Shown: positions 24,218 through 51,200, counted from the first letter of the stretch. The stretch: DNA of 64,000 nucleotides from Candidatus Nanoarchaeia archaeon (GCA_028713045.1 JAQTOY010000002.1:60-64059); one strand, 5' to 3'. The notes: a model not told the origin generated them from the sequence alone. Program-made: numbers and translations.

Positions 24218-24220
24218 TTT

Positions 24221-28342: not shown

Positions 28343-28396
28343 ATGAGGAGCTTAGGATAATATTTAAGTCCCTCTTTTAAAACCTAATGCCCTAAA

Positions 28397-32780: not shown

Positions 32781-34067
32781 TTAGATTACCTTAGCTTTCA
32801 ATTCAGTGCAAACTCCAGCTGCAACTGTTGCACCAGCATCTCTTATTGCAAATCTTGCCATATGAGGATTAACTTTTGAAGTTTCAATAACTAAGTTACC
32901 CATTGGTTTAATTTTAACAATAGCAACATCTCCATTCTTTATGAAATCTACTTTTCCAGGCATAGGTTGTCCTGATGTTGGATCGATTTTATGCATTATT
33001 TCTAAAAATTGACAAGGAACCTGTGCTGTATGAATATGGAAAACAGGAGTATATCCTTTTGCAATTACAGTTGGGTGGTTTATTACTGCAATTTGAGCTG
33101 TGAATTCTTCTGCAATTGTAGCTGGTTGTGCTGCATCGCAGATTACGTCTCCTCTTGCAACATCTTTCTTTCCAATTCCTTTTATATTGACTCCAACATT
33201 GCATCCCGCAGGAGCTTCTTTCATCTGTTCATGGTGCATTTCAATTGATTTTATTTCTCCATCAATTCCTCTTCCGCTTCTTCCAGGTAATATCTTGATT
33301 TTTTGCCCAACTTTTAATATTCCAGTTTCAATTTTTCCAACCGGAACAACTCCGATTCCAGTGATTTCATAAACATCTTGCAAAGGCATTCTTACTGGAA
33401 GTTCAGTTGGTTTTTTAGGTTCATCAAATAAATCCAATTGTTCGTATATTGTAGGCCCTTTATACCAAGGCATATTTGTAGATTTTTTATAAATATTATC
33501 TCCCTTTAATCCTGAAACAGCCAAGAATAATGTTTTTTCAGGGTTGATTCCAACTGCTTTTAACAAATCAGAAACTTCCTTTTTAACTTTTTCAAAAGCA
33601 TCTTGTTTGTAATCAACAGCATCCATTTTATTAATTGAAACTGCGATTTGCTGAACACCCATTGTTCTTAACAGCCATAAGTGTTCCTTAGTTTGAGGTT
33701 GAACTCCATCTTTTGCAGATATTGTTAAGAATGCAGCATCAGCTTGTGAAGCACCTGTAATCATGTTTTTTACAAAATCTTTGTGTCCAGGAGCGTCGAT
33801 TATTGTAACCTGTCTTTTAGGTGTGATTATTTTCTTGTAAGACAAGTCAATTGTAACTCCTCTTTCTCTTTCTTCTTTAATATTATCCATTACAAAAGCG
33901 AATTCAAAACCAGCTTTTCCAAGCTTTTTAGCCTCTTCTGTAAGTTTCTTCATTTCCTGTTCTGGAATTATTCCAGAATCAAACATAAGTCTACCTACGC
34001 AAGTTGATTTTCCATGGTCTACATGACCTACAAAAACGACATTCATTGTTGGTTTTTCTGCTGCCAT
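32781..34067 (-). CDS. tuf: translation elongation factor aEF-1alpha
   Basis: GHVDHGKST, DAPGH, NKMD and the rest of the GTPase and beta-barrel domains. Confidence 0.95.
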   Translation of the reverse strand: MAAEKPTMNVVFVGHVDHGKSTCVGRLMFDSGIIPEQEMKKLTEEAKKLGKAGFEFAFVMDNIKEERERGVTIDLSYKKIITPKRQVTIIDAPGHKDFVKNMITGASQADAAFLTISAKDGVQPQTKEHLWLLRTMGVQQIAVSINKMDAVDYKQDAFEKVKKEVSDLLKAVGINPEKTLFLAVSGLKGDNIYKKSTNMPWYKGPTIYEQLDLFDEPKKPTELPVRMPLQDVYEITGIGVVPVGKIETGILKVGQKIKILPGRSGRGIDGEIKSIEMHHEQMKEAPAGCNVGVNIKGIGKKDVARGDVICDAAQPATIAEEFTAQIAVINHPTVIAKGYTPVFHIHTAQVPCQFLEIMHKIDPTSGQPMPGKVDFIKNGDVAIVKIKPMGNLVIETSKVNPHMARFAIRDAGATVAAGVCTELKAKVI

Positions 34068-34440: not shown

Positions 34441-35253
34441 ATGCAACTCTTAATCAATCAAATCCTAGAGAAAGTAAAGCAGAATAAAAAATATAGGACA
34501 ATCTCTGATGAGATTGTTCTTGATGAAATCCAAAATTATCTAAAGAAAAATCCAAATGAATCTGTAAACGATTTGATGATAAAATCAATACGGAAAAATC
34601 TCCATAGATTATATTCAAGTTACTCGAGAGGAAAAAAACATAAGAAAAATAAATTATTGGAAGAGTTAAGGAAAAACCAAAATGATCTAGAAATAATTAA
34701 AAAAATATTAGGAACTGTTGTTTCAGCAAAAGAAAGATTATATGAATATGAAAAAATCTATTCAGAAATTTTTAAGATAACTGGAAAACCTGCAACAATT
34801 CTAGATTTAGGTTGCGGTTTAAATCCTATTTCTTTTCCATTCATGAATCTAAAAAAGCTGGATTATTATGCATATGATATTGATGAGGAGGATATTCAAT
34901 TTCTTAATGAATATTTTAAGTTAATGAAATCCAAAGGATTAAATGGAAGAGCGCAAATATTGAATGTTCGAGATTTTGAAAAAATATCGAAATTACCTTC
35001 CTCAGATTTAATATTTTTATTGAAAATAATAGACTTGATTGATATTAACAATCACAAATCAAGCGAAGAGCTGATAAAAATTCTAATCAAAAAAACAAGA
35101 TTCATTGTTGCAAGCTTTGCAACAAGAACAATTTCGGGAAAGCCGATGAATCTTCCTAGAAGAAGGGGCTTTGAATTCATGTTAAAAAGAATCGGGTTGA
35201 AGTTTGAAACTTTCTCAATAAAAAACGAAGTTTTTTATGTGATAAGCAAATAA
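34441..35253 (+). CDS. FmrO/Rmt-Arm family 16S rRNA methyltransferase-like protein
   Basis: SAKERLYEYEKIYSEIF...ILDLGCGLNPISFPFM resembles the TRERL...DxACGLNPL signature I recall from RmtB/ArmA-type G1405 methyltransferases. Confidence 0.55.
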   Translation: MQLLINQILEKVKQNKKYRTISDEIVLDEIQNYLKKNPNESVNDLMIKSIRKNLHRLYSSYSRGKKHKKNKLLEELRKNQNDLEIIKKILGTVVSAKERLYEYEKIYSEIFKITGKPATILDLGCGLNPISFPFMNLKKLDYYAYDIDEEDIQFLNEYFKLMKSKGLNGRAQILNVRDFEKISKLPSSDLIFLLKIIDLIDINNHKSSEELIKILIKKTRFIVASFATRTISGKPMNLPRRRGFEFMLKRIGLKFETFSIKNEVFYVISK

Positions 35254-35274: not shown

Positions 35275-36492
35275 TTATCTTCTGCTCAACATCTGGTCAA
35301 CAAAATTTCCAACTCTCATTCTCATAACATTTCCGGGAAGAACAATTGATGGAGGAGGATTATATCCTCTTTCTCGCATTCCTTCGAAAATTCTTTCTCT
35401 CCAGTATTTTTGTTGACTCCCCGGTTCAATATCTGGAAAGTCTTCAAGAACACCCTCTGGAGAATATTGTTCAAAAACTTTTCTAAAAATCTGGCCAGTA
35501 ATATGCTCAACCCCTCCATCCATTACAAGAGCATCAACTTGTCCAGTATTGCAAATATTCATAGCAGTACAAATTCCAAATGCGGCAAAGACATTTGTTC
35601 CCCCATATTTTCCAAGAGTTGCAAGTTCATCAGCAACTTTTTTTCCAAGTTTCCCAACTGTACCGCCAGGGTTGAGGAAATAATCTCCAGTGTCTTCAAT
35701 AACTAATACATTATATGTTCTTGAAGAAGCTTTTCCCGGAACTGAATAAACCATGCAATCAGGAAATTTTTCAATTAATGGAACAGTCCGGTCATTTTTA
35801 TTTCTAATTCTATTAGCATAATCTGTTATTTTTCTAGTCTCAATTTCAGAATGTCTAACCATGCCTTGTTCATGCTCTCTTCTTATTGCCTCAAGCTCAA
35901 ATTCAGTCATTGCTTTAACCTTATCAACATCTCCTGCTTGCATTGCTTCATTTATAGTCCTATTCTTGCATAAAATTGGAGGTAATTTAAATCCTCTTTC
36001 TTTAAGTGAACACATAATCGCAAGATAAACCGATTCATAAAAACTATCGGAGCCATCCGGACGTCTTAGGGATTCTAAGGTGACTGTTTCATAGTCCATA
36101 TAACCATATGACCCAACATTCATACCTCCAATCGCATGAACTAAACTTATTATTCTCTCTCTATCAACTATTCTTGGATCTTCATTTATTTTACTATCAT
36201 TAAGAAATGTTGAAAGGCTTCCCGAACTCTGAAAAATTATTTCATCATCAAACATTATTTTATATTTTTGTTGACACCATCTATCTACTCCCCCTCTATG
36301 AAGTTCCCTCTTAAAGTTATGCTGAAAATCTACGTGATATCCTCGCCCCAATCTTAGAGTTTCTCGAAATTTTATTTCTCTTCTAATTCTTCCATCAAAT
36401 TTTTGAGGTTTTAATACTAATTCTGCTTCTTGATGTGTAACTGCTGATAAAACCTCTAATGAGTCTCTCAAAGTATCTTCTAAGTCTTCCAT
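35275..36492 (-). CDS. hypothetical protein (orphan class), 405 aa; weak receiver-like C-terminal segment
   Basis: Intact ORF. NVLVIEDTGD...VDALVMDGGVEHITGQIF is only loosely CheY-like. Confidence 0.6.
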   Translation of the reverse strand: MEDLEDTLRDSLEVLSAVTHQEAELVLKPQKFDGRIRREIKFRETLRLGRGYHVDFQHNFKRELHRGGVDRWCQQKYKIMFDDEIIFQSSGSLSTFLNDSKINEDPRIVDRERIISLVHAIGGMNVGSYGYMDYETVTLESLRRPDGSDSFYESVYLAIMCSLKERGFKLPPILCKNRTINEAMQAGDVDKVKAMTEFELEAIRREHEQGMVRHSEIETRKITDYANRIRNKNDRTVPLIEKFPDCMVYSVPGKASSRTYNVLVIEDTGDYFLNPGGTVGKLGKKVADELATLGKYGGTNVFAAFGICTAMNICNTGQVDALVMDGGVEHITGQIFRKVFEQYSPEGVLEDFPDIEPGSQQKYWRERIFEGMRERGYNPPPSIVLPGNVMRMRVGNFVDQMLSRR

Positions 36493-36570
36493 AGTATCTA
36501 TTATAAGAATTCTTTTTAAGACGTTTTTAAATCTTTTGAAATTGAATATCGGACATTAATTAATAAATAT

Positions 36571-36921
36571 TCAGGGATTTTTTCTTTCTAAAGATTTTAC
36601 AGATCCAAGTGAATAAGCAGTATAGCTAGTAACATCTCCTTTATCTGGGATTGACTCTGAAAATAAAAGCATAATCTCTCCGGTTCTAGATGGATCATAA
36701 ACTCCTAAGGCATAACCTCTATAAACCGGACTAGTATCTGTAAGAACTTCTCCCTTATGTAAACCATTTTGAATTTCTAATCCTTGAACCGTGGAGGTAG
36801 TATCATCAAAGGTTAAATATACTAATCTTCTTCCAACCCCTCTTCTTTTAATAACCGGAAAACATTCTCTAGCTATTGGTAATTTTTCCCCAAAGAGCTT
36901 TCTTAATTCTCTAGATTCCAT
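36571..36921 (-). CDS. hypothetical protein (orphan class), 116 aa
   Basis: Intact ORF directly downstream of EF-2 on the same strand. Confidence 0.5.
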   Translation of the reverse strand: MESRELRKLFGEKLPIARECFPVIKRRGVGRRLVYLTFDDTTSTVQGLEIQNGLHKGEVLTDTSPVYRGYALGVYDPSRTGEIMLLFSESIPDKGDVTSYTAYSLGSVKSLERKNP

Positions 36922-36984
36922 TCTTTTAAAATAAATATTTGATTAATAAATGTTATTGTATCGAAAGAACTCTTTTAAAACTTT

Positions 36985-39180
36985 TTACTCATTCTCAGCC
37001 ATTCCTTTTCTATCTCTAATCTTCTTTACAATCATTGGCTGAATATTCCCCGGAACTCTTTCAAATGCCTGATCAACCATGCTGAAAGTTCCTCTTCCTT
37101 CTGTTGCGCTTCTTATTGCGCTTGCCAATCCAATCATTTCAGCAACAGGCATTTTTACTTTTATGATGACATGTCCTGCACCTTGTTCAATATCAATAAC
37201 CTGCCCTCTTCTTCCTGAAATCAATTTTGTCAAATCTCCCATATGCTCCAAAGGTCCTTCCATCAATAATGTCTGAACAGGCTCAAATAAAACTGGTGTT
37301 GCAGTTCCAATGCTCATTCTTATTGAATCTCTTACCGCAGGGTAAACCTGGGCCGGTCCTCTGTGAATAGCATCTTCATGTAGTTTCATATCAACAATGG
37401 AAATTTTTAATTTAGTGCACGGCTCTCTTGCAAGAGTTCCAGCATCAATTACTTGTTCAATTCCATCCATTATCATTTCAATTACCTCTCCAATATGAAC
37501 TTCTCCCTTGACTTTGTTTAATATAGCACATTCTTTGTAAATCTCAATATATTGTCTTACCTCTTCATTACTGCATCCTAAATCATTCAACTGCTTCCAT
37601 ATTTCTTCCTCTCTTTTCTTGAATCTTCTTTCAGGAAGTTCTCTTTTCTTGATTGCTTCATAAACAGCATCCTCCAAAGGTTCAACTTCAATAAAAAAAT
37701 AGTTGTGCTTGTTTGGCGATTTTCCTTCTCCAGTCTGTCCTTTTTTCATGACGGTTTCTCTGTAAACAACAATTGGCTCTGAAGTTTTTACTTCAACTCC
37801 TTTTTCTGTTTTTATTCTGTTTTCAATGATTTCAAGATGCAGTTCTCCCATTCCACTCATAAGATTCTCTCCAGTTTCTTCATTAATTTCAATTTTCAAA
37901 GTTGGATCTTCTTTTGCAACTTTTTTCAAAACTTCAATTAATTTTGGTAAATCTTGAGGTTTTGGAACTGAAATTGATTTTGTAATTACTGGATCAAAAA
38001 TATGTTTTATACCTTCAAAAGGCTCCTGTGGTTCTAAAGTTATGGTCTCTCCTGGCTGTGAAACAACTCCGGTTATTGCAAGAACATTTCCAGCTCCAAC
38101 TTCTTCCAATTGCTCAGGTTTTATTCCATTATAGACCAATACCTGCTGAATTTTTTGTTTTTTCTTATCATTATTAAGATAAACATCCATTCCAGCCCTT
38201 AAAGTTCCTGAGAACAATCTTCCAGCATTAATTTCTTTTCCACTTTTTGATTCAATAATCGTGTTTGTGATTACAAAAGCAACTTCTGCTTTAGGGTCAC
38301 AATTAATCAAACCTTTTCCAAATTCGCTTTCAGGATCTCCAGGCCATATTTTTGGAATCCTATATTTTTGAGCTTCAAGTGGTGATGGCAGATGTTTGAC
38401 AACAGCATCCAATAAAACTTCAAATAATGGCGCTTTGTCCCAGACCCATTTTTTTCTTTCTTCCTCACTCATGCTTCCATCATATAATGAAATAACATCC
38501 TTAAAACCAACTCCTTTCTTTTTCATGAAACCTACGGATAATGCCCAGTTGTCTCTAGCGCTTCCAAAGATGACGCTTCCATCAGCAACATTGACTTTCC
38601 ACTTTTCCCTGAATTGAGGTTCTGCAATCTGTTCAATCAATAGATTAAACTGATTGATTATTTTCATGAATCTTTCCTGCATTCCTTCAGGAGTAAGTTT
38701 CAGTTCTTTTATCATCCTGTCAACTTTATTTATAAAAAGTATTGGTTTTACTCTTTCACGCAAAGCCTGCTTCATGACCGTCTCTGTTTGAGGCATTATC
38801 CCCTCTGAAGCACAAACTAATACAATTGTTCCATCAATTGCCCTCATAGCTCTTGTGACATTTCCTGAAAAATCAACATGTCCAGGAGTATCAATCAGGT
38901 TAATCAAATATTCATTTCCTCCGAACTCATGAGCCATTGAAACATTTGCAGCATCAACAGTCAATAATCTTTCCTGCTCATCTGAATGCTGCCAAGTTGC
39001 CATTCCTCCCTCCAAATCTCCAGCAAGCTTCTCGCTCATCATTCCAGCGGCAGCAAGAAGGTTGTCAGTAAGCGCAGTTTTTCCATGATGGATATGCGCT
39101 GAAGTAGCGATGTTTCTAATATGGTTCTGGGTTGCAATCAATCTCTTGATTTTCTCGAATGGTGTTTCTTTCTTTGCCAT
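36985..39180 (-). CDS. fusA: translation elongation factor aEF-2
   Basis: AHIHHGKT, DTPGH, NKVD and the diphthamide-loop HEDAIHRGPAQ. Confidence 0.95.
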   Translation of the reverse strand: MAKKETPFEKIKRLIATQNHIRNIATSAHIHHGKTALTDNLLAAAGMMSEKLAGDLEGGMATWQHSDEQERLLTVDAANVSMAHEFGGNEYLINLIDTPGHVDFSGNVTRAMRAIDGTIVLVCASEGIMPQTETVMKQALRERVKPILFINKVDRMIKELKLTPEGMQERFMKIINQFNLLIEQIAEPQFREKWKVNVADGSVIFGSARDNWALSVGFMKKKGVGFKDVISLYDGSMSEEERKKWVWDKAPLFEVLLDAVVKHLPSPLEAQKYRIPKIWPGDPESEFGKGLINCDPKAEVAFVITNTIIESKSGKEINAGRLFSGTLRAGMDVYLNNDKKKQKIQQVLVYNGIKPEQLEEVGAGNVLAITGVVSQPGETITLEPQEPFEGIKHIFDPVITKSISVPKPQDLPKLIEVLKKVAKEDPTLKIEINEETGENLMSGMGELHLEIIENRIKTEKGVEVKTSEPIVVYRETVMKKGQTGEGKSPNKHNYFFIEVEPLEDAVYEAIKKRELPERRFKKREEEIWKQLNDLGCSNEEVRQYIEIYKECAILNKVKGEVHIGEVIEMIMDGIEQVIDAGTLAREPCTKLKISIVDMKLHEDAIHRGPAQVYPAVRDSIRMSIGTATPVLFEPVQTLLMEGPLEHMGDLTKLISGRRGQVIDIEQGAGHVIIKVKMPVAEMIGLASAIRSATEGRGTFSMVDQAFERVPGNIQPMIVKKIRDRKGMAENE

Positions 39181-39368
39181 ATTAAAATTTATGTTTTTGA
39201 GCAGTTGTTTTACTATTAATTCTTAGAAGTTGTTAACACTGAGAAAATCTCTCATAAGATTTTCGAGGTGATCAAGAACTTGCACTCAGGTTTTAACCCG
39301 AAGTTCTTGACAACTAATAATATAATATTTATCAATAATAAAACAGGTTTAAAAATCTTACTAAACCC

Positions 39369-39836
39369 CTATTGTTGTTTGGGTTCGATACTTAAAATGT
39401 CTATACTTGTTAACTCATCTGCTATTTTTTCAAGTTCTGCACCAGTTTTATAAGTAACATCCCTTTTTTCAACATACCTAATCTTTACAACCTCGCCAAT
39501 ATCTCGAAATTCTTTTTTATTAACTTCTTTAATATAAGTTCCATCATTTATCCGAATATACAAAAAAAATCTTTCAGGTTGTGAAACTTCTATTGGAACT
39601 TTATGCGAATGATGATTCTTAAAATATCCGTAAGAAATTTCAACTTCTTTTTTTATTTCAAACCCCGGAGAGTAGCTTCTTCCAATAACCCTGGCTTCGC
39701 TCGCTCCATCAACAGATTCTGTCTTGACAATTGTTGCATTAGGATTAAAAGACGGTTCTGTTTCTTTTTTTGCATTTTGAGAACATCCCAACAAACAGAC
39801 CCCTGCAAAAACCAAATTTAATAATTTTAATTTCAT
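39369..39836 (-). CDS. putative lipoprotein
   Basis: Signal peptide with lipobox: MKLKLLNLVFAGVCLLGCS. Confidence 0.6.
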   Translation of the reverse strand: MKLKLLNLVFAGVCLLGCSQNAKKETEPSFNPNATIVKTESVDGASEARVIGRSYSPGFEIKKEVEISYGYFKNHHSHKVPIEVSQPERFFLYIRINDGTYIKEVNKKEFRDIGEVVKIRYVEKRDVTYKTGAELEKIADELTSIDILSIEPKQQ

Positions 39837-39885
39837 TTTGTTTTAATTGATTTCTATTTTATCATAGAACTATTTTTCAAAGAAT

Positions 39886-40455
39886 TTAATCAAAGGTCCA
39901 TGATAAAGGTTCATGATTTTGAGAGTAACCTATTTCCAATCTTTTTTTATGAAACATTACTCTATGCGGAAACTGATTTGCGGCCCTAAGGACTCTTCCA
40001 AGATCCATCTTTGCCGGAATTTGTGTTAATCCAAATCCATTTCCTAGACTCATTTCATCGGTTAATTTCTTATGATTCATAGCATCAACAAGTTCTCTGG
40101 TTAAAGCATGACCCGATGTAAGAAGCATAAAATAAGTTCTCCAAGCGGGCTGACCTCTTAGAGTCGGTCTTATTCTATAAACAGTTTCTGGAACCTCATA
40201 AGCTGCGGCTTGAGTTTCATCAATTGATGCTTGGACAATTGGCGTAAGACCTTGAGAGTCAAAATTAAGCAAATCTAAGGAATCAAGTTTTCCAGAATTA
40301 CCATATCTCCAAATTAAAGCAGACCTGTGACGTTCATAACAGCGTGCCAATACAAAAACCGGATTTTTTTCAGCAACAATTATTAATTTATCATCACCCA
40401 AATAACCCCTGTATTGAGGGCACTCTGAGGTTTCATCTGTCATGAAATTATTCAT
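39886..40455 (-). CDS. hypothetical protein (orphan class), 189 aa
   Basis: Intact ORF between S7 and EF-2 on the same strand. Confidence 0.55.
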   Translation of the reverse strand: MNNFMTDETSECPQYRGYLGDDKLIIVAEKNPVFVLARCYERHRSALIWRYGNSGKLDSLDLLNFDSQGLTPIVQASIDETQAAAYEVPETVYRIRPTLRGQPAWRTYFMLLTSGHALTRELVDAMNHKKLTDEMSLGNGFGLTQIPAKMDLGRVLRAANQFPHRVMFHKKRLEIGYSQNHEPLSWTFD

Positions 40456-40511
40456 AATAAATTTGTTTAAAAAGAATTATATAATTAAAGATATACTTTT
40501 GATAATTAATT

Positions 40512-41174
40512 TTATCTAGCAGAATCTGCCTGTTTCTCAGAATCTTTCTTTTTTGCCATTGCATAGCTGTCAGGTTCAGCATTGTAAGTCTTGATTATCT
40601 CATCGGCCAATGCCTGTTCTATCTTAGTTTTTTTGTTGAAAGATTTGTCATAACTTCCCTGTACTATTGTTTTCATTGTCTGGGTTACTCTTCTCGATGG
40701 AGAGATATCAACTGCCTGCGGATATCTTGCTCCGCCATACTCAATTACAGTTATTCCATCCCTTGGAGCTGAGTTTTCAATAGCAGTTACAAAAACCTGG
40801 ACTGGATTTTTCTTAGTTTTTTCTTCAATTATTTTAAAGCAGTTAAGTACTATCTTCATATTCTGCGAATATTTTCCAGACTTCCAGCTTGTCTGTATCT
40901 TATGTTTTTTTCCTCTATGTCCGGGAACTGCAATAAGATTTGCGAATAATTCAATGACATTAATTTTGCCTTTTGAAAATTTTTCTCTCACTCTTCCATA
41001 ACTTTTAACAACGAGTTTTGGTTCAAGATTGATGTATCTTTTCATTCCAGGGTCATTTACCTTTACTTCTGAAACATCGTATAATCCAAATAGTTTAAAT
41101 GCCAAAGGGTTTGATTTTTCAACTAATTCTGCTTCTTCATTCTCTTCATTTATTGTTTCTTGTTCAGTTTCCAT
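40512..41174 (-). CDS. rps7: 30S ribosomal protein S7 (uS7)
   Basis: KLFGLYDVSEVKVNDPGMKRYINL and the C-terminal uS7 core, with an acidic N-terminal extension. Confidence 0.9.
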   Translation of the reverse strand: METEQETINEENEEAELVEKSNPLAFKLFGLYDVSEVKVNDPGMKRYINLEPKLVVKSYGRVREKFSKGKINVIELFANLIAVPGHRGKKHKIQTSWKSGKYSQNMKIVLNCFKIIEEKTKKNPVQVFVTAIENSAPRDGITVIEYGGARYPQAVDISPSRRVTQTMKTIVQGSYDKSFNKKTKIEQALADEIIKTYNAEPDSYAMAKKKDSEKQADSAR

Positions 41175-41176
41175 TT

Positions 41177-41413
41177 TTATCTTGGTAATTTTTTTATTAA
41201 GCCTAAGTTTTCAGGAAATACTTCCCACATCTCTTCTTCTAAAGAGCTTTCCTTCGCTTCTGGAGTTAAAGGTCTTCTGGTTGGACCTTGTTGCGGAATA
41301 TAATCTTCTCCAGGATTATTATCGCCATAAAGATTTCTTGGATCCATTGGATCAGTTGGACTCTTTCCAGTATAATCTGGTTTTCCATCATTTTTATCGT
41401 CATCATCTCCCAT
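41177..41413 (-). CDS. hypothetical acidic/Pro-rich small protein (orphan class), 78 aa, probably disordered
   Basis: ORF fills the S12-S7 spacer exactly, leaving 2-nt and 5-nt gaps. Confidence 0.45.
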   Translation of the reverse strand: MGDDDDKNDGKPDYTGKSPTDPMDPRNLYGDNNPGEDYIPQQGPTRRPLTPEAKESSLEEEMWEVFPENLGLIKKLPR

Positions 41414-41418
41414 CTTAT

Positions 41419-41655
41419 TTAAGCAGCCCTCCCATATAATACATAGTCAAAAACTTTTCGAGTTAAAAATCTGTTTCCATGTTCATCTTGAACATGATAA
41501 ACATTATGAGGATTATTAATCTGAGCCCATAATCTAATTTTTAATCGAGGGTCTCGATTATAGTTTACTGCAATAGTTCCTCTAAAATGTCGGTCCCTTG
41601 CACATTCATCAAGCTCTTCTACACTCTGAACTATTCTTATTTTTGATTTCGTCAT
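41419..41655 (-). CDS. hypothetical small protein (orphan class), 78 aa
   Basis: ORF starts 1 nt after the S12 stop codon. Confidence 0.5.
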   Translation of the reverse strand: MTKSKIRIVQSVEELDECARDRHFRGTIAVNYNRDPRLKIRLWAQINNPHNVYHVQDEHGNRFLTRKVFDYVLYGRAA

Positions 41656-41656
41656 T

Positions 41657-42079
41657 TTATCTTCTACCTTTTTCTATCTTGCCTTTCCACAATAATTTCA
41701 AAGGCTGATCATTTACTTTAATAACTTTCCATCTGACTCCAGGAATATCTCCTTTGCTTCTTCCCTGCTTTCCGCCAATTCTTTCAATTATAACTTCATC
41801 ATGTTCATCAATGAACTTTTGAGCTAAATTTCCAGGAATGAATGCTGTAACAGTCCGGGAGTTTTTTATTAGTTGGACTTTGCAGCATTTCCTCATTGCA
41901 GAATTTGGCTGTTTTGCTTCCTTTTGCACTTTTTCAATAACAATTGCCTTTCCCTGGTTTTTTCCACCAAGAGGGTCTGATTTTTTGAAAAGATTTAGAG
42001 TCCTGACTTTGTAAGCCCTGTCATGCCATCTGAATTTCCTTCTGTTCTTCATTAATTTTGTTGCGTTTCTTAGTCCCAT
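41657..42079 (-). CDS. rps12: 30S ribosomal protein S12 (uS12)
   Basis: [16 protein letters not shown] and [10 protein letters not shown] conserved blocks. Confidence 0.95.
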
Positions 42080-42326
42080 CCGAATATGTCTATAATTGAG
42101 TATATAGAATAATAATTAATTAGTAAATAGGTTTAAAAAGTTATTGTTTTAAACCCAAGATAAAACTTATCATTAATATTCAAAATTAAGAGTTATGTTG
42201 GGGTCGATTGTTATTGCTTCTATCACATCTCTTCAATTTTTTCACTTATTTTACACTTCATAACTTGCATAACAATAATTATATAATCTAGACATAAACC
42301 TTAATAAGTCGCTTGTTAAAGAAATC

Positions 42327-42746
42327 TCACTTTATCCTTACACTTCTTATGTCAAAATATTGTTTAAGAATGTTCTCCATCTCTCCCAATCTTACTTTTT
42401 CTTTTCCAATCAGGGATGCCTTGCTTTGCGGCCCGGCATTTATGATAACTTCATCATCTTGAATTTCAATTGACTTGAATCTGACAGGTTTTGTTATTAT
42501 TGAAACAAAATTTTTTATATCCGGTCTTCCAAGGGGTATTGCAACAATTTTTATTTTTTTGCCAATTATCTGGCTTAATTTTTCAAGATTTCTATTCTGA
42601 AGACCTATTGCTTTCTTGACAAGACCTTTTGGAACAACAAAAATTATCGTATGATTATATTCAAAACAATGGTTTGTCCGAACATTTGTTATCTTAGTGA
42701 ATAAATTTGCATATCTTATGAACTGCATATCTAAAACTTTTATCAT
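42327..42746 (-). CDS. nusA: archaeal NusA-like protein (two KH domains)
   Basis: Size and position next to S12. KH-type GLVKKAIGLQNRNLEKL and LIGKEKVRLGEM. Confidence 0.8.
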   Translation of the reverse strand: MIKVLDMQFIRYANLFTKITNVRTNHCFEYNHTIIFVVPKGLVKKAIGLQNRNLEKLSQIIGKKIKIVAIPLGRPDIKNFVSIITKPVRFKSIEIQDDEVIINAGPQSKASLIGKEKVRLGEMENILKQYFDIRSVRIK

Positions 42747-42924
42747 CGGAGATTATGTTTTTATTTTAAATAAAAAATATTTTTATATTCTTTTAAACCC
42801 AAGTCAGTTTTTAAATGTATCGAATAAGATTTTAAAAAGGATTAAACTTCTATATAAAAGAACAAGGAATCTAATATGAATAAAATAAATAATTTTTAAA
42901 TAGCAATCGCGGATAATAATTTTT

Positions 42925-43881
42925 ATGAAAATTTCATTTTTTTTGATAGATAAAGCTGAAGAAGATATAATAATAAATAATTTTAAAGAGCACTCTATTA
43001 AAATTTTTTCAGAACCCTTAAATCTAAAAAATTTGGTAGAAGTTAAAGATTCGGATATAATTGTTTCAAAAGCAGTTTTTCTTAATTTAGAATTTGATAG
43101 AAATACTCTTAAAAACTTTCCAAATCTTAAGATGATATCGACAATGTCGACAGGTTTTGATCACATTGACTTAATTTATTGCAAGGAAAAAGGAATTTTT
43201 GTATCTAATGTTCCATCTTATGGGGAAAAATCTGTAGCAGAATTCACCTTCGCCTTAATTCTTTCATTGCTTAAACAAATTCCAAAATCCATTAATCAAA
43301 TAAATGGAAGGAGAGTTGATTCAAAAGAAATAACAGGATCTGATTTAAATGAAAAAATTATAGGGGTGATAGGTACAGGTAGGATTGGTCTAAATGTTAT
43401 TAAAATAGCAAAAGCATTTGGATTAAAAGTTCAAGCATATGACATTTTTGAAAATCAAAAAGCAATCCAAGAATTAGGGTTTGATTATATTCCTTTAAAC
43501 GAGCTTTTAAAAAATTCGGACATAATCTCATTTCATGCGCCTTTGAATGAACAGACTTATCATATTTTAAATAAAAATAATATATCTTTATTAAAAAAGG
43601 ACGTTGCAATAATAAATACTGCTAGAGGCGGATTAATAGATACTTCTGCTTTAATAGATTTTTTAAGAAATAATCCTGAAAGTCTTGCAGGGCTGGATGT
43701 TTTTGAAGGAGAGTCTAATATTCTAAGCAGTAATGAATTAAAGGATCTTCTTGAATTAGATAACGTATTAATAACCCCGCACAACGCTTCAAATACAAAA
43801 GAAGCAAAACAAAGAATGTTAGACATAACAATAAAAAATGTTTTGAATTTTATCAAAAGCAAACCATTAAACCTAGTTTAG
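42925..43881 (+). CDS. D-isomer-specific 2-hydroxyacid dehydrogenase (NAD-binding)
   Basis: GVIGTGRIGLNVIKIAKAFGLKVQAYD, NTARGGLID, LDVFEGE and ITPHNAS. Confidence 0.85.
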   Translation: MKISFFLIDKAEEDIIINNFKEHSIKIFSEPLNLKNLVEVKDSDIIVSKAVFLNLEFDRNTLKNFPNLKMISTMSTGFDHIDLIYCKEKGIFVSNVPSYGEKSVAEFTFALILSLLKQIPKSINQINGRRVDSKEITGSDLNEKIIGVIGTGRIGLNVIKIAKAFGLKVQAYDIFENQKAIQELGFDYIPLNELLKNSDIISFHAPLNEQTYHILNKNNISLLKKDVAIINTARGGLIDTSALIDFLRNNPESLAGLDVFEGESNILSSNELKDLLELDNVLITPHNASNTKEAKQRMLDITIKNVLNFIKSKPLNLV

Positions 43882-44153
43882 TTTAAGGTATATTACGGGT
43901 TTTGTGATATTAGAAGATAATTTATCTAAACTTTCTTTAAAATATATGTAATGTTAACTATTTGATCCTCTCCATCCAAAAAACATTCTATAATCTTGTC
44001 TTTAACTTCATAACTTATAATTTTAGGTCCATTATGAATCTTAATTAATTCTCCTTTCGATAAAGGTATTCCTCCTTGGAGAGCTTGAAGTTATTTGTTA
44101 TCTTCACCTTCAATCAAAATCTTTGTATTTTTCTTTATCATAATCAGAAAAAT

Positions 44154-47100
44154 CTATTTCTTCCCATTGACAATCGGTTCAGTATCTTTTTTAGAAGTGT
44201 CCTTTGTACCCTTTGTTAGATAACTGACACTTTTGTCTTCCTTTGGCTTCTTGTCTGTCAATGGTCCAGTAACCTCAACCATGAGTCCAGGAAGTCCTGT
44301 TCCAACAGGAGCTGGCTGATTGAGTATTATATTTTCAATCACTGAATCTAATTCATCCTTGTTTTCTTTCAAAGTTGCATTAACAAAATGTTTGACCGGA
44401 GTTTCAAAACTTGCTCTTGCAAGTATTGATGATTTCTGTGATATTATACCCATTCTCGTTATTCCCTTTACAATTCCTTCAGAAGTCATTGAGTCTGCAA
44501 TTAATCTCGAATGTCTTTTATCAATATCCAACCCCTGGGAATTTATAACTTTTTCAATCTCTTTCATTATTGCTGCTCTTGCAACCTCAACACCAAAAAT
44601 ATCGCATATCTCATGCAAATCATTGCTGATTGTTCTTGTTCTATCAACCCCTTTAAAATTAATTATATCTTTAAGATTTGTTCCTGCAGTCAATATTACA
44701 TATCCTTCTTCTCTTTTAACAACAAGTATTTGTTCAATTCCTTTTATTCCAGAAATTTGAGTTTCCTTTATTTTCTCTTTTAGTTTGTAAATCTCCTTAA
44801 AATTCATGTCTTTAGTACTTATTGTTATAGAATTTCCAGAAGCCTTGCAATTAGATTCTATCTTTCCACTCTCATTTAATTTTTTAACAATAGTTTCAAC
44901 TGAAGAATGGACTCTTTTGACTGCGTCGCTGTCGATAAGCGCTTCAATTCTTTTGTCAGAAAAATTTATTTTTATTTCTTTTATTATATCTTTTAGTTTA
45001 ATTTCCTGAATTTTTTCAGCGATTACTTTTGCATCTTTTTCGTTGTTATATTCTTTTTCCAAATAAATCTCCATTGCAGGTGTTGAAGGTGTTCTTCTAG
45101 CATCAAATATTTCTATGAGTCTTGGAAGTCCTAATGTAACCTGCATCTCAGCAACTCCTGCAAAGTGGAATGTTGAAAGTGCCATCTGTGTTGAAGGTTC
45201 TCCAAAAGATTGAGCAGTTACAATTCCGATCGCTTCTCCAGGAGAAATGTCTTTATCTTTATGCAATTCTGAAACATCTTTTCCATCTTCTCCATATTTG
45301 AACTGGATTATATTTTCAGAGCCATCTCTGACAGTATGGTCATATTCAACTTTAATATCCTGCAATGCATTTGCGAGTCTTCTGTAAAGATATCCTGATT
45401 TTGGAGTTCGGAGTGCAGTATCCATCAGCGCATCTCTTCCAGTTATCGCTCCAAAAAAGAATTCGCAAGGCTCTAGTCCTTTTAAGAATGAACTATAAAT
45501 GAATCCTCTTGATTTAGGAGATAAGTCTCCTTCCTTAAAAAAAGAAAGTGTTCTGTTGGTGAATCCAATTCCAATTCTCTTTGACCATAACGCCTGCTGT
45601 CCAACACAACATGCCATTTGGGTTATATTAAGAACATTTCCTCCAGCTCCAGAATCTATCATTATGCTTACGGGGCTGCTTTTAGAGACTTCTTTTCCTA
45701 CAATTTTTCCAATTTTTGTTCTTATTCCATTTAATGTCTGCAATATTTTGATTTCTCTTGTTTCCTCTGCAGTTTTTCCAGGTATAATCTCCAGTTCTCC
45801 AGTTCTGTAGCTTTCTATTATATTGCCAGTTTCTTTTTCAGCTTCGGCAACTATCTCTGCAGTCGAGCTCTTGACTTTATCGTTTACATTCAAATCATCC
45901 ACCGATATAGTGAATCCATGATTGGTTAGAAATTGAACTCCCATTGTAAATGCATTTTCCAAAACCTTTATTGTTTTTTTCCTTCCAGTATCTTTATCAA
46001 GATGCTTCAAAAGATTTCCACTTTCAACTGCAAATACATTTTCATCAACCACGCCTTCTTCAATCTGCCCGTTCTTGACTACAAAATTATCTCCGATTTT
46101 TGTTTTACTTTTATAATCTGTATCTGGTATTATTTTTGATATTATCTCATTTCCATTTAGAATATTCTTTGAGAGCTTAGTGTTTATTCCAGATTGGTAT
46201 AATAATTGAAATGCATCTGCCTTTGAAACATTTGATTTGCTTAAAATAAAATTTCCAGTGACTGCATCCTGGGTGCATCCCAAAAGATTGCTGTTGTCTT
46301 TGCATGACATTAAGTTTCTGTTGACGTCCATTAATATTTTTGCTTCTGCTCTTGCTTCTTCTGTCTGAGGAACATGAATATTCATTTCATCTCCATCAAA
46401 ATCCGCATTGTAAGGTGGAGCAGTAGCCGGATGTATCCTGAATGTTTTATAGGGAAGGACTTTTACAAAATGCGCCATTATACTGGCTTTATGCAGGCTC
46501 GGATGTCTATTGAATAAAACAACGTCTCCATCAATCAATTGTCTTTCAACAACATAACCAGGCACTAATTCATCCAATATTTCTTGTTTTAAATCCGAAG
46601 TTATTTTCTTTCTTCTTCCATCAGGCCTTATGATATAATTTGCAGTAGGATATTTTTCATTTAAAATTATTTTCTTTAATTTTTCCATATTTGAAGAATT
46701 AACCTTTTCATTTACAGTCAAGATTTCTGCAATCTCAAATGGAATTCCTACTTCATTTAATTTCAATGCAGGATCAGGAGAGATTACTGTTCTTGATGAA
46801 AAATTGACTCTTTTTCCTGCAAGATTATGTCTGATTCTACCTTCTTTTCCTTTTATTCTTTCAGTTATTGTTTTTAACGGCTGTCCGCTTCTATGTCTAG
46901 CCGGAGGAATTTTTGTTATTGAATTATCAAAAAAAGTTGTTACATGATACTGCAACAAATCCCACAAATCTTCTATAATAACCTCTGGAGCTCCGGCATT
47001 CAGGTTTTCCCATAATCTCTGGTTTGCTCTTATGATATCAGAAAGTTTGTGAGTCAAATCATCTTCGCTTCTTTCTCCGGATTCTAAAGTTATTGAAGGT

Positions 47101-47708
47101 CTTACTGTTACAGGAGGAACCAATAATAAGGTAAGCACAGACCATTCTGGTCTGAAAATTTTTGGATTTATTCCAGCAAGTTTTGCTTCATCGTCAGGAA
47201 TTCTTGCAAGTTTTTCTCTTATCTCTCCAGGAAATAATCTTCTTTTTCCTATTCTAAATGTAGATGGTTTTTCTAATTTTATTCTTTCTTGTTCGGCATG
47301 ACAGTAAGGACATATTTTTGCATCTTTTGCTCTTTTTATCCGGTCTTTAACTGCCTTGTATTTTATCATGTCTTTTTCTTTTATCATAAATCTATGGCAT
47401 TCAGAGCAAAAGCATCTTAAGAATAATTCAACAACCGGAACATATTTTATATGAAAAATAGGTCTTGCAAGTTCAATACATCCGGGATGTCCCAAACATT
47501 CTTTTAATCTGCCTCCGCAGGTCCTGCACCTTACTCCCGGATCAATTGCCCCTAATCTTAAGTCCATTAATCCTCCATCAACAGGATATCCATCAACATC
47601 ATAAAGTTCAGGAGTTATTATTTTTGCCTTTGATATTTTTTTAATCTCGTCCGGACTAAGAAGAGAAAATTGCAAACTCTCAACTTGTTTTCGTACTGGT
47701 TTTACCAT
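44154..47708 (-). CDS. rpoA: DNA-directed RNA polymerase subunit A, unsplit (A' and A'' regions in one 1184-aa ORF)
   Basis: N-terminal zinc motifs. Catalytic NADFDGDEMN. Trigger-loop block GEPSTQMALSTFHFAG lies in the same frame, with no stop between the A' and A'' regions. Confidence 0.95.
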   Translation of the reverse strand: MVKPVRKQVESLQFSLLSPDEIKKISKAKIITPELYDVDGYPVDGGLMDLRLGAIDPGVRCRTCGGRLKECLGHPGCIELARPIFHIKYVPVVELFLRCFCSECHRFMIKEKDMIKYKAVKDRIKRAKDAKICPYCHAEQERIKLEKPSTFRIGKRRLFPGEIREKLARIPDDEAKLAGINPKIFRPEWSVLTLLLVPPVTVRPSITLESGERSEDDLTHKLSDIIRANQRLWENLNAGAPEVIIEDLWDLLQYHVTTFFDNSITKIPPARHRSGQPLKTITERIKGKEGRIRHNLAGKRVNFSSRTVISPDPALKLNEVGIPFEIAEILTVNEKVNSSNMEKLKKIILNEKYPTANYIIRPDGRRKKITSDLKQEILDELVPGYVVERQLIDGDVVLFNRHPSLHKASIMAHFVKVLPYKTFRIHPATAPPYNADFDGDEMNIHVPQTEEARAEAKILMDVNRNLMSCKDNSNLLGCTQDAVTGNFILSKSNVSKADAFQLLYQSGINTKLSKNILNGNEIISKIIPDTDYKSKTKIGDNFVVKNGQIEEGVVDENVFAVESGNLLKHLDKDTGRKKTIKVLENAFTMGVQFLTNHGFTISVDDLNVNDKVKSSTAEIVAEAEKETGNIIESYRTGELEIIPGKTAEETREIKILQTLNGIRTKIGKIVGKEVSKSSPVSIMIDSGAGGNVLNITQMACCVGQQALWSKRIGIGFTNRTLSFFKEGDLSPKSRGFIYSSFLKGLEPCEFFFGAITGRDALMDTALRTPKSGYLYRRLANALQDIKVEYDHTVRDGSENIIQFKYGEDGKDVSELHKDKDISPGEAIGIVTAQSFGEPSTQMALSTFHFAGVAEMQVTLGLPRLIEIFDARRTPSTPAMEIYLEKEYNNEKDAKVIAEKIQEIKLKDIIKEIKINFSDKRIEALIDSDAVKRVHSSVETIVKKLNESGKIESNCKASGNSITISTKDMNFKEIYKLKEKIKETQISGIKGIEQILVVKREEGYVILTAGTNLKDIINFKGVDRTRTISNDLHEICDIFGVEVARAAIMKEIEKVINSQGLDIDKRHSRLIADSMTSEGIVKGITRMGIISQKSSILARASFETPVKHFVNATLKENKDELDSVIENIILNQPAPVGTGLPGLMVEVTGPLTDKKPKEDKSVSYLTKGTKDTSKKDTEPIVNGKK

Positions 47709-47713
47709 TTTAA

Positions 47714-47932
47714 TTAAGCACCATTTGGAAAATCCCGGCTATAATTTATATCTACAGCATCATAACAGTTTAAGTAACCTTGAGGATATCTGCATCTTTC
47801 GCCTGTTTGTTTAAACCTGTAGCCACATGCTTCAAACATTTCGCATAAGGGATGTTTAGTTTGAGTCATATCTACTGGAGTTCTAACTGGCTCACCAATA
47901 CCTTCATCAGTAATCAAAAAAAGTTGTACCAT
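47714..47932 (-). CDS. Cys4 mini-protein (72 aa), paralogous module to 47934..48212
   Basis: C30-x5-C36-x10-C47-x8-C56. This matches the spacing and several flanking residues of the adjacent ORF. Confidence 0.6.
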   Translation of the reverse strand: MVQLFLITDEGIGEPVRTPVDMTQTKHPLCEMFEACGYRFKQTGERCRYPQGYLNCYDAVDINYSRDFPNGA

Positions 47933-47933
47933 T

Positions 47934-48212
47934 TTATTTTTCTCCCTCTTCAGAGCTAGGTGTATAAGTTGTTAAATCAATGCCAGAATCATTAATAACA
48001 GTCAATTCTATGCCGGATTCAGGTAGTGATTCTCTATCTTCTGCGGTTTCTAAATTATCACATCCAACATATCCGACTGTACTTCTGCAACCAGTATAAG
48101 TACGTTTATTTCCGTACAAACATACATTTGCCATCTGACAGACTATTGCTGTTCTAGATTTAGTATTTGTGCCATCCATTCCAAATTTTTCTCCAGATAT
48201 TGAAACTGCCAT
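47934..48212 (-). CDS. Cys4 mini-protein (92 aa)
   Basis: C25-x5-C31-x10-C42-x8-C51. Starts 1 nt after the rpoB stop codon. Confidence 0.6.
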   Translation of the reverse strand: MAVSISGEKFGMDGTNTKSRTAIVCQMANVCLYGNKRTYTGCRSTVGYVGCDNLETAEDRESLPESGIELTVINDSGIDLTTYTPSSEEGEK

Positions 48213-48213
48213 C

Positions 48214-51200
48214 TTATTCGTATTTATTTTTTAGATTAAATTTAGTTCTAATATGAAGAGATTGTATCTCATCAACCAATAATTTGAATGCATAGGATAC
48301 TTCAACAGGTTCAATTTCCTGCGAGTTGCACATTGAACAGATTAGTTTATTTCTCAATGTGTCTTCAATTGCAACTGAACCGCATTTTGAACAAATATGC
48401 AAAATGACCTTATCTGAATCATATCTTTCTTTTAGCAATAGAGAAGCTCCATGAGCCACCAATGCCTGTTGCTCCATTTCTCCCAATCTTAATGCTCCGC
48501 CTTTTGCTCTTCCTTCAATTGGCTGTCTTGTCAATAATGTAACTTTTCCTGATGCACGAGCATGAAGTTTATTCGCAACCATGTATTTTAATTTCAAATA
48601 ATACATATCTCCAACATAAATTTTAAGGTTCATCATCCTTCCAGTTATTCCATTATAAACAGTTTCTTTTCCATCTTCTCTGAATCCTAATTCTTTAAGT
48701 TGTTCTTCCAAATCCTCAATTTTTTGTCCAGAGAATCCAGTTCCATCAATTATTTTTCCATTTAAACATCCAACCTTTCCAGCCAATAACTCTACAAGAT
48801 AACCGACGCTCATTCTTCCAGGGATTGAATGTGGATTGAATATTATATCGGGCCTGATTCCTCTTGAAGTGAAAGGAACATCATTCTCAGGAATTATTGC
48901 TCCAACAACTCCTTTCTGTCCATGAGGAGTTGCAAATTTATCTCCTAATTCCGGTTTTCTCAAATCTCTTGTCTTGACTCTTATCACCTTATTTCCTTGT
49001 CCATCTTCTGTAATGAAAACAGATTCAACTGTTCCTTCTTCCTCTTGCCTTATTACTGAGCTTGATTCATTCTTTGCTTTGACAGAAATTTCTCTTACTT
49101 CTGAAAGGAATTTGGGAGGAGAAATTTTTCCAATGACAACTTCTCCAGATCTCATTGCAGCTTCTGGAAAAACAATTCCATCATCTTCTAGATATTTGTA
49201 GCTTTCTTCTGTCCTGTAACCAGAAACATCTTTTTCAGGAATGCATACTTCATCCTTTAATCCTCCGGCATAATTAAGTTCAACCGAAGTGTAGGGCCGG
49301 TAATATGTGCTTCTTGCAAATCCCCTGTCAACGCTTCCTTTATTTAGAATCAACGCATCTTCCATATTATATCCATCATGTGTCAAAACAGCAACGACAA
49401 CATTTTGTCCTGCCGGATGAACATTCAATGTGTCATAAACAAAACTTCTTACAATTGGTTTTTGAGGATAATGCAAGATATTGACATCAGTGTCAATTCT
49501 GCATAGAAAATTTGCAGCATAAAGCCCAAGGGCCTGTTTGTAGCTTTTGCTTCCCTTTATCAGTTTAGCGCAGGAATTATAATTAATGTAAGGGACGAGT
49601 GATGTAACAACTCCTAATAAATCTATTCTGTCAATCTGCAGATGAGTATGTTCATCTGTTATTTCTTTTTCATCCAAGGCAACAAGAGAATTTTCCTCTT
49701 CGGCAGTATCCAGATATTCAATAACTCCATTTTTAAGCAAGTCATTCCAGTTTATGCTTCCATTTCTAAGTGCATTAATATGATCTGCGTTTAATCTTGA
49801 TTTTCCATTCTCAGCAACAATCAAAGGCCTCATAATTCTTCCGACTTCTGTTGAAAGAATAACATTATCGAGAGATTTGTTATATCTTATGCTCAATTCA
49901 ATCGGTAATTCGCCTCTCCTTCTTTTTTCTTTCAAATCTTTTATTAATCTCTCGCAATTATCCGTATTTCCTATGAATCTTCCATTTAGGAAAATATCAT
50001 TCCCATTTCCTTCAACTTCTCTTTTAACACCTAAATTGGCCAAGATTTTAATCAGTTTTTCATCATCAATATCCGCCCTTGTTGAGATTTTTGTCAGGAT
50101 TGCAAGATTTTTTCTTAATCCTATCTCAGTACCTTCAGGAGTTTCAACTGGACAGAACCTTCCATAATGTGTTGGATGAAGGGTTCTTGCAAGAAAATTT
50201 TCCTGTTCGCCAGGAAGCATTGATGAGACTCTCTGCAATTGTGAAAGAATAGCGAGATAATTTGTCTTGTCCATGTTCTGCGTAACTCCAGTTCTTTCTC
50301 CAATCCAGTTACCTGTTGCAATAGCGCTTTCAACCCTATGTGTGAATAATGTTGATTTAGCAATTGTCTTTATTGAATAGAATTTTTTTCTTTTTTGGAT
50401 TTTCTGCAAAGAATGGACTATATCTCTCAAAAATATATTCATGTTTATTCTGAATAAATCTGCCAATAAATCTCCAGACATTCTCACTCTTTTATTTGCA
50501 TAATGGTCTTTATCAGTTAAATTCTCAGGATTTTCTTTTGCAATAAAAAATTGTTTTATGAACTTACAGAGAGTTATGGCCTTTTCAATTCTATGCTCTT
50601 TTTTTAATCCAATATGAGGGAGAAAATATGAATCAAGTCTTTGTTTTATCCTATCTAGAATCTCTTTTTTTGTTCCTTGAAGGGAAGTATGTTCTGCAAT
50701 AGCCATCATGGCATCTTCCTCATTTTTTATTGCAGTGTATTCGTAGAGATTGACTATCAGGCTATCATTCTCTTTTCCAATGTATTTTGCAATCTCACTT
50801 TCTTTTGTTAGTCCAAGAGCTTTTAATATTATTATGATGGGAATGTTCTTGAATCTTGAAAAACTGACTTCAACAATACCTTCATTTGTGTCTGTTATTG
50901 AGATTGGAATCCTGTAGCTACCTCTTTTTGAAAATAATCTGAGCATAAGCTTGCCTCTTGATTTTTCAATAAAGGGCTGATTTTCCGCCAAATCTTCTGT
51001 CATTACAATTATTCTTTCATTTCCATTTATTATAAAATATCCTCCAGGCTCTAGAGGGTCTATGTACTCTTTTATCAATTCTTCTTTATTCATATTTGAA
51101 AGATTGCAAACCTCGCTCTTTACAATAATAGGTATTTTTCCGATTTCAACTTCCTGACTTTCTATCTGTCCGCCTTGTTTTATTGTTATTTCAACATTTA

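Follow-up and report, generated by a model that had tools for sequence, protein, structure and literature searches.

Results and discussion

Eight open reading frames (ORFs) lie inside the RNA polymerase (RNAP)/S12-S7/elongation factor (EF) gene cluster of a tiny Pacearchaeota archaeon of the DPANN lineage, on a stretch of 64,000 nucleotides (nt) of DNA (Candidatus Nanoarchaeia archaeon, GCA_028713045.1, JAQTOY010000002.1:60-64059) that is referred to here as the window. These inserts are real coding, lineage-specific, and co-oriented genes, and the same junctions are filled in most related species by different, mostly unrelated small ORFs. The explanation that we favor, with a probability of about 0.6, is that the inserts are species-specific passenger genes in recurrent, clade-wide variable slots at the RNAP, S12-S7, and EF-2 junctions. 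The canonical archaeal order of this cluster is rpoH-rpoB-rpoA-(L30e)-nusA-S12-S7-EF2-EF1a-(S10), and it is regarded as one of the most invariant gene arrays of archaea and is a common phylogenetic marker set. An earlier interpretation of this DNA, the sequence-only reading, had treated the inserts as a property of one window; they are real in the window, but they reflect an order-wide property of the junctions. The cluster is thus porous in a whole DPANN order, with junctions that hold hypervariable, probably translationally coupled orphan genes, and this implies that in streamlined genomes even essential operons can admit new genes and protect them. The host genome, of which the window is contig C66, comprises 0.96 Mb in 68 contigs, has about 32% G+C, and is 88% complete.

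The eight inserts and the evidence that they are coding

The inserts, named by their length in amino acids (aa), are the following.

i92, 92 aa: 47934-48212, minus strand, first of a tandem pair between rpoB and rpoA
i72, 72 aa: 47714-47932, minus strand, second of the tandem pair between rpoB and rpoA
i78a, 78 aa, basic: 41419-41655, minus strand, between S12 and S7
i78b, 78 aa, acidic: 41177-41413, minus strand, between S12 and S7
i189, 189 aa: 39886-40455, minus strand, between S7 and EF-2
lipo155, 155 aa, putative lipoprotein: 39369-39836, minus strand, between S7 and EF-2
i116, 116 aa: 36571-36921, minus strand, after EF-2
i405, 405 aa: 35275-36492, minus strand, after EF-2

All eight were found on the minus strand at the places where the sequence-only reading had put them, and the gaps that it had given were exact. 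The genes rpoB, i92, i72, and rpoA are separated by 1, 1, and 5 nt (TAA-g-ATG, TAA-a-ATG, and TAA-ttaaa-ATG, respectively) and the genes S12, i78a, i78b, and S7 by 1, 5, and 2 nt (TAA-a-ATG, TAA-ataag-ATG, and TAA-aa-ATG, respectively). A Shine-Dalgarno-like GAGGGAG is located 9-15 nt upstream of i72, within the end of i92. ORFs cover 98-99% of both tight gaps, a coverage of 90% was reached in none of 5000 shuffles of either gap, and the antisense strand of both gaps carries no ORFs. Given this stop-to-start chaining, co-transcription and translational coupling are the natural reading for the four small ORFs. The claim that minimal spacers imply coupling does not extend to i189, lipo155, i116, and i405, which have their own AT-rich upstream spacers of 49-78 nt and are not wedged between their neighbors; the spacer of i189 is 56 nt long, AT-rich, and contains a TATA-like element (repeat D18), and that of i116 is 63 nt long.

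The G+C content at the third codon position (GC3) was the lowest of the three in all eight inserts, at host-like values of 0.17-0.24, and the order GC1>GC2>GC3 held in seven of them, the exception being i92 (0.42, 0.47, and 0.18, respectively), where GC2 is slightly above GC1. This periodicity together with the GC3 values shows that the inserts are coding sequences with host-like codon usage. All eight proteins are called genes in public (NCBI) collections and six are also present in independent Logan assemblies. The composition that had been noted from the sequence, poor in Lys, Ile, and Asn (K, I, and N) and rich in Arg, Gly, Pro, Tyr, Cys, and Asp, was borne out in seven inserts, where the K+I+N fraction was 0.11-0.19 compared to 0.22-0.34 in the core genes; lipo155, with 0.24, is host-typical. 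This composition is not peculiar to the cluster, as K+I+N is below 0.17 in about 15% of all ORFs of the genome, which number roughly 1100.

The genome-wide K+I+N distribution has a low shoulder, and a two-component fit places 31% of the genes around a mean of 0.17. This class has 7.2% Arg versus 3.9% and a GC3 of 0.21 versus 0.25, its members tend to cluster (for example at 20116-30022 of the window, C30:4391-16024, and C26:10616-17932), and it includes a rare ubiquitin-like cassette at 20-30 kb of the window. It may mark an accessory or exchanged gene pool.

When the eight inserts were searched against Pfam, NCBIfam, PHROGs, and PADLOC nothing was found above threshold, PADLOC giving 0 matches. 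None of them could be identified as an RNAP subunit or a ribosomal protein, L30e, Rpo10/12, and Spt4 included, since there is no Pfam or NCBIfam match and they are absent from most members of the genus. Apart from the similarity of i92 to i72, no paralogs were found within the host genome. There was no homolog of the window inserts in 80 Pacearchaeota loci, and when six of the inserts were searched in 48 other genomes of the genus only lipo155 was matched; i78a, i78b, and i116 were without a homolog in either set. As judged by these searches, seven of the eight inserts are orphans or near-orphans and only i405 has a family.

The same junctions in related genomes

The 80 Pacearchaeota loci were fetched by an S7 profile and their junctions were analysed by script. 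Of 74 loci, 49 carry same-strand ORFs of 44-247 aa at the S12/S7 junction and the other 25 have gaps of -4 to 129 nt there; at rpoB/rpoA, 14 of 36 loci carry such same-strand ORFs, with lengths of 60-111 aa. The order of the cluster had been assumed to be rigid; it is less so in Pacearchaeota, where the rpoA/nusA, nusA/S12, and S7/EF-2 spacers are also often expanded, the last ranging from 1 to 3155 nt. The commonest junction across the relatives is TAA-a-ATG, and the sequence 10-20 nt upstream is often rich in purines. The 86 junction ORFs of the relatives had mean GC1, GC2, and GC3 values of 0.42, 0.32, and 0.19, respectively, with GC1 higher than GC3 in 98% of them, and they are mostly polar, soluble, and non-membrane, a hydrophobic segment being present in only 3. 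By BLASTP and phmmer they fell into 74-76 groups, a number bounded by the sensitivity of HMMER and BLAST, so that short, fast-evolving proteins may be related beyond it. Pfam searches of 83 of them gave four sub-threshold matches and no domain above threshold.

Within the genus of the window the core order around S7 is the same and the extra genes differ. Four genomes (G003, G010, G004, and G018) have nothing at either rpoB/rpoA or S12/S7. The rpoB/rpoA junction holds an ORF of 109 aa in G016, ORFs of 54 and 81 aa in G005, and one of 60 aa in G012, while S12/S7 holds one to three ORFs in G001, G005, G008, G009, G012, G013, G019, and G021. Thus, the comparison of synteny with relatives that had been proposed found the inserts to be variable, the junctions being either empty or filled with unrelated ORFs. 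The suggestion that they are novel accessory factors of transcription or translation finds no support as far as a conserved function is concerned, as they are not conserved even within the genus. Different content at the same junctions in most species also indicates a hotspot and not single events. As a control, the L3-to-S8 ribosomal-protein operon of the host genome was without such inserts. In a literature search no paper was found on this junction-slot phenomenon.

Several side observations concern these loci. In L052, L059, L065, and L068 the S12/S7 junction carries a pair of genus-level families, namely fam1, with members of about 105-114 aa and an NG..FQV..C motif, and the acidic fam2, with members of 55-63 aa; their order is swapped in L059. 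The S7/EF-2 interval of G003 (L031, G003:C1, 3533-7034) is a larger variable island with three opposite-strand genes, which by eye are candidates for an aminopeptidase, a band-7/SPFH-type protein, and a Cas4/RecB-type nuclease with a C-terminal Cys cluster. In L036 (G021:C24, 1192-7893) rpoB is 1211 aa and rpoA is 1000 aa compared to 1090 and 1182 aa, respectively, elsewhere, and this may be an in-frame fused extension of rpoB with a truncated or split rpoA. In the control operon (C22:2489-9324, L3-L4-L23-L2-S19-L22 ... L14-L24-S4e-L5-S14-S8) the place of S3, L29, and S17 is, by simple ORF calls, taken by a gap of only 256 nt.

Turnover and divergence of the junction contents

In 12 homologous pairs of junction ORFs the ratio of nonsynonymous to synonymous divergence (dN/dS) was 0.40-0.90, with dS near saturation in several pairs, and in the same genome pairs the dN of the flanking S12 and S7 was 0.02-0.34; constraint on the junction ORFs is therefore weak but present. 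In the two closely related loci L057 and L059, S12 and S7 are 93% identical in nucleotide sequence, whereas identity falls to 45-65% in the junction, where the alignment has 354 gap columns and one of the two loci has an extra ORF. The same pattern of replacement or insertion and deletion (indel) was seen in L064/L067 and in L108/L115, and in L083/L094 and L091/L124 the junction had diverged in place at an accelerated rate. On a tree of S12 and S7 from 69 taxa the filled or empty state of the junction needs at least 12 changes, 6 of which are forced by well-supported branches. Where homologs of junction ORFs could be detected they were positionally stable, 11 of 12 matches being at the same junction. 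These homologs at the same junction, a family that is shared between distant clades (see below), and the replaced junctions together indicate that both fast vertical divergence and replacement or indel occur.

This divergence leads to the question whether the junction ORFs have any function at all. They could be translated spacers, that is, trapped DNA sheltered from deletion and kept open so that S7 and rpoA stay coupled, with a coding-like composition because it must encode a harmless soluble peptide. The dN/dS of up to 0.8-0.9 in several pairs is near neutral, and this together with the extreme sequence diversity, the lack of domains, the exact fit of the ORFs to the gaps, and their mostly polar, non-membrane character is what such spacers would be expected to give. 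We consider this unlikely, however: the difference between GC1 (0.42) and GC3 (0.19) is far beyond what stop avoidance alone would produce (an estimated 0.33 versus 0.31 or thereabouts), dN/dS is only 0.40-0.55 in several other pairs, the duplicated i92 and i72 have kept 11 specific residues, and 150-900 nt translated at the level of ribosomal proteins should be costly in a genome of about 1 Mb.

A different possibility is that the junction ORFs are positionally fixed but hypervariable binders of the ribosome or RNAP, made in stoichiometric amounts with S12/S7 and RpoB/RpoA and kept evolving fast by an arms race against a host, a virus, or compounds that target the ribosome. That the same junctions are occupied across the whole order, that detectable homology is found at the same junction, that the clade of the window's genus is almost always filled, and that dN/dS is below 1 can all be read in this way, as can the four-Cys module conserved between i92 and i72 and the presence of an FmrO-type 16S rRNA methyltransferase in the same cluster here and in three relatives. 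The S12/S7 junction, however, is empty in one third and the rpoB/rpoA junction in nearly two thirds of the species, close relatives differ by whole ORFs, and the contents share no detectable sequence family, length, charge, or motif, so we regard a common role of this kind as improbable. Should they prove to bind the ribosome or RNAP, the products would be lineage-specific regulators of a new class. A broader and still more speculative proposal, which we think decidedly improbable, is that the stop/start junctions of essential, highly expressed operons in ultra-small symbiotic lineages, here Pacearchaeota, are dedicated expression-and-refuge slots in which fast-diversifying small proteins are born or captured; made stoichiometrically with S12/S7 and RNAP, these would take part, as modulators of the ribosome or polymerase, in an arms race against hosts, viruses, or compounds that target the ribosome.

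Insertion footprints and mobility

The suggestion that the inserts are selfish genes exploiting strong operons comes closer to our reading, but no mobility feature, such as a homing-endonuclease, integrase, or toxin-antitoxin domain or flanking repeats, was found. As free-standing homing endonucleases the inserts can be rejected, since no HNH, GIY-YIG, LAGLIDADG, or PD-(D/E)XK domain was found in the 8 inserts and 83 junction ORFs. Integron cassettes were likewise rejected: there is no integrase match, there are no attC-like repeats or flanking repeat families, and the spacers of 1-5 nt leave no room for recombination sites. The toxin-antitoxin reading was rejected too, as searches for toxin-antitoxin or defence systems gave 0 matches in PADLOC and no Pfam or PHROGs match above threshold. 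Integron cassette arrays and hotspots flanked by core genes do resemble the slots of the window in that they hold co-oriented, promoter-less, diverse small ORFs at a fixed site and are read from an outside promoter; the slots differ from integron arrays in lacking an integrase and attC-like repeats.

The wider proposal that the inserts are selfish mobile cassettes aimed at conserved junctions, be they homing-endonuclease genes, integron-like cassettes, or addiction modules, would account for the patchy distribution with many gains and losses, the precise placement between highly conserved genes, the replacement between near-identical genomes, and the tandem pairs i92/i72 and i78a/i78b. We nevertheless judge it very improbable because nuclease, integrase, and toxin/antitoxin domains are absent from all the inserts and junction ORFs scanned, attC-like or terminal repeats are missing, and there are no second copies of the inserts in the host genome, where the junction ORFs of other species also have no homologs.

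A possible footprint of insertion is seen at the S12/S7 junction. In the insert-free relative L061 S12 and S7 are joined by AGATAAAATG, and in the window a close variant of this sequence, AAGATAAAAATG, links i78b with S7; i78a itself starts at the same junction ATG (AGATAAAATG) that starts S7 in L061. This short repeat fits insertion exactly at the stop/start junction, as far as can be read from the sequence, but it is too short and A-rich to serve as proof of a duplication. No comparable junction repeat was found at rpoB/rpoA.

The proposed passenger-gene explanation

In the explanation that we favor, the promoter-less small ORFs would be transcribed by read-through from the native operon promoters and translated by termination-reinitiation at TAA-N-ATG, and hence at roughly the level of S12, S7, and the RNAP subunits. 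New cassettes would be gained and lost exactly at the stop/start junction through illegitimate or flank-guided recombination; an imprecise event would destroy an essential neighbor. A streamlined genome has a bias towards deletion, from which these same essential neighbors would protect the inserts. The products are likely to be small soluble proteins under weak purifying selection, with species-specific and dispensable roles, for example in interaction with a host or virus, and would not be conserved subunits or factors of RNAP or the ribosome. By contrast with the chained ORFs, i189, lipo155, i116, and i405 would be ordinary stand-alone accessory genes in the variable S7/EF-2 and EF-2/EF-1alpha intervals.

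There is a precedent for this in bacteria. It has been reported that ORFans of E. coli and B. subtilis are often inserted into native operons and use the native promoters for their expression, as in sdhCDAB-b0725-sucABCD, and that the presence of such an ORFan in an operon need not mean that the functions are related (Price, Arkin and Alm 2006, 'The life-cycle of operons', PMC1480536). The window inserts, like those ORFans, are lineage-restricted, homolog-less genes on the same strand with operon-like spacing; the spacing of 1-5 nt applies to i78a, i78b, i92, and i72, and i405 and lipo155 have narrow families. What differs here is that the operons are the most conserved informational ones, that the genes are chained on both sides, and that insertion recurs at the same junctions across an archaeal order. 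For annotation this means that a gene should not be taken for a factor of the ribosome or of RNAP on the strength of lying in one of their operons. Some 90 junction ORFs are at hand whose flanks are known and whose divergence is graded, and these are material for work on the origin, evolution, and loss of orphan genes.

Several points weigh against this explanation. Occupancy is phylogenetically clustered, with 16 filled junctions to 1 empty in the clade of the window's genus, and one family (FYNPLLKV...GGYKRI) is present at the same slot in distant clades, so part of the diversity may be that of an ancient resident gene that diverged past recognition and not that of swapping. The dN/dS below 1, together with the retention of junction ORFs by two thirds of the species in a lineage with streamlined genomes, could point to a conserved function that is linked to S12/S7 and tolerates sequence change. 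Neither flanking direct or inverted repeats nor a recombinase were found that would reveal a mechanism of insertion, and the weak junction repeat, AAGATAAA(A)ATG, is seen around i78a and i78b only. The control for the inserts is one operon in one genome. Finally, we infer the transcription and coupling of the small inserts from the anatomy of the genes.

Individual inserts

The tandem paralogs i92 and i72 are 31% identical and share a C-x5-C-x10-C-x8-C module in which all 4 Cys residues and M, Y, K, T, R, and GY are invariant. Each is the only relative of the other among 5.8 billion proteins. Kinship with two Cys-containing ORFs at the rpoB/rpoA junction of G005 was considered and rejected, as no homology was found.

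By eye i78a had been linked to fam1 of the genus, but the fam1 profile hidden Markov model (HMM) does not detect it (E=1.2). The acidic i78b, which has a net charge of -8, is rich in Pro and Asp, and ends 2 nt before the start of S7, could likewise not be shown to belong to fam2 (HMM of six members, E=0.69, 2.6 bits); it resembles these proteins, which also lie upstream of S7, only in composition, position, and a C-terminal K-K-x-P-R. The S7 of the genus has an acidic N-terminal extension that, in an alignment across relatives, is genus-specific. It varies from 20 to 45 residues, is not present in other families, and lies directly next to the acidic mini-ORFs of the slot, so that sequence may have been exchanged between ORF and extension.

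Among 5.8 billion proteins i189 is a singleton, with only chance-level matches in the relatives. Neither i189 nor i116 has a sequence match in the PDB, and a comparison of i116 with the 137-aa ORF that takes its place in G003 showed no similarity (E=0.14). In lipo155 a signal peptide and an LLGC lipobox can be read directly from the sequence, and its one homolog, 46% identical, is in one member of the genus on a contig other than that of the S7 cluster of that genome.

Three relatives of i405 were found in a word-indexed search and 55 representatives in a full HMMER search of 1.8 billion proteins. One relative with 41% identity lies downstream of EF-2 in G003, and two homologs, one of them 688 aa long, are in unrelated genomic contexts. 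The family includes proteins of about 680 aa that are extended at the C-terminus, and Pfam domains are absent from all its members. Structure prediction, which had been proposed as a check, covered i405. The first AlphaFold2 model had a mean per-residue confidence (pLDDT) of 74.6, and the model built with 35 sequences reached 89.2 with a predicted template modelling (TM) score (pTM) of 0.85. In it, an N-terminal helix and antiparallel sheet are followed by a helical part and then by a C-terminal alpha/beta domain (residues ~245-405) that looks receiver-like, and although the model is confident it has no match at E<0.01 in the PDB or in BFVD, a library of viral models.

Receiver matches of the i405 C-terminus were marginal, namely a PDB profile of AdeR at E=0.022 and Foldseek matches to KdpE, AdeR, and CheY4 with a probability of about 0.8 and E>0.07, and there was no match to Pfam Response_reg. 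The predicted domain resembles CheY-like receivers in its three-layer alpha/beta architecture, in an acidic pair (E266 and D267) after strand 1, and in D325 at the end of strand 3; across the 35 sequences E266 is invariant and D325 nearly so, and D267 is invariant in the three closest. It differs in that the matches are below significance (E about 0.02, TM score of 0.5 or less), the region of strand 4 is modelled as a low-confidence loop, and equivalents of the conserved T/S and K of the receivers were not identified. The receiver-like appearance of this domain, marginal and seen in a model, is a lead and not an assignment.

The core cluster and its neighbors

The core genes and the other genes of the cluster, in the order in which they lie, are the following.

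rpoH: 51627-51836, minus strand, Pfam Rpb5_C
rpoB: 48214-51489, minus strand, upstream anchor of the rpoB/rpoA slot, Pfam Rpb2 domains 1-7
rpoA, unsplit A'+A'': 44154-47708, minus strand, downstream anchor of the rpoB/rpoA slot, Pfam Rpb1 domains 1-5 in one ORF
D-2-hydroxyacid dehydrogenase: 42925-43881, opposite strand, interrupts the cluster, Pfam
KH-domain NusA-like gene: 42327-42746, minus strand, Pfam
rps12 (S12): 41657-42079, minus strand, upstream anchor of the S12/S7 slot, Pfam PF00164
rps7 (S7): 40512-41174, minus strand, downstream anchor of the S12/S7 slot, Pfam PF00177
EF-2: 36985-39180, minus strand, anchor of the S7/EF-2 and post-EF-2 variable intervals, Pfam
75-aa membrane ORF: listed between i405 and EF-1alpha, minus strand
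FmrO-type 16S rRNA methyltransferase: 34441-35253, plus (opposite) strand, in the EF-2/EF-1alpha interval, Pfam E=1e-21
EF-1alpha: 32781-34067, minus strand, Pfam

The order and orientation of the canonical core genes are preserved. The window differs from the canonical cluster in that rpoA is unsplit, L30e and S10 are missing, and there are extra genes at junctions other than rpoH/rpoB. It had been noted that no L30e or S10 gene was present, and this is correct for the window: S10 is on another contig of the host genome, and L30e was not found in this 88% complete genome, in which there is a single L7Ae-family gene. The two opposite-strand interruptions that had been described, the dehydrogenase and the methyltransferase, were both confirmed by Pfam.

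An Rfam scan of 30-54 kb gave only a tRNA and no known RNA in the larger spacers. In these spacers there is a 36-nt AT-rich element (repeat D6), reading TTTTTAAACC... on the coding strand, with copies at 39320-39355 and 42104-42139 that are 78% identical. They are situated 140-175 nt upstream of EF-2 and 25-60 nt upstream of S12, respectively, and are likely to be a promoter element common to both genes, which would set off separate transcription units. Homologs of the FmrO-type methyltransferase, with 49-53% identity, are found at the equivalent place in three relatives (L061, L063, and L065).

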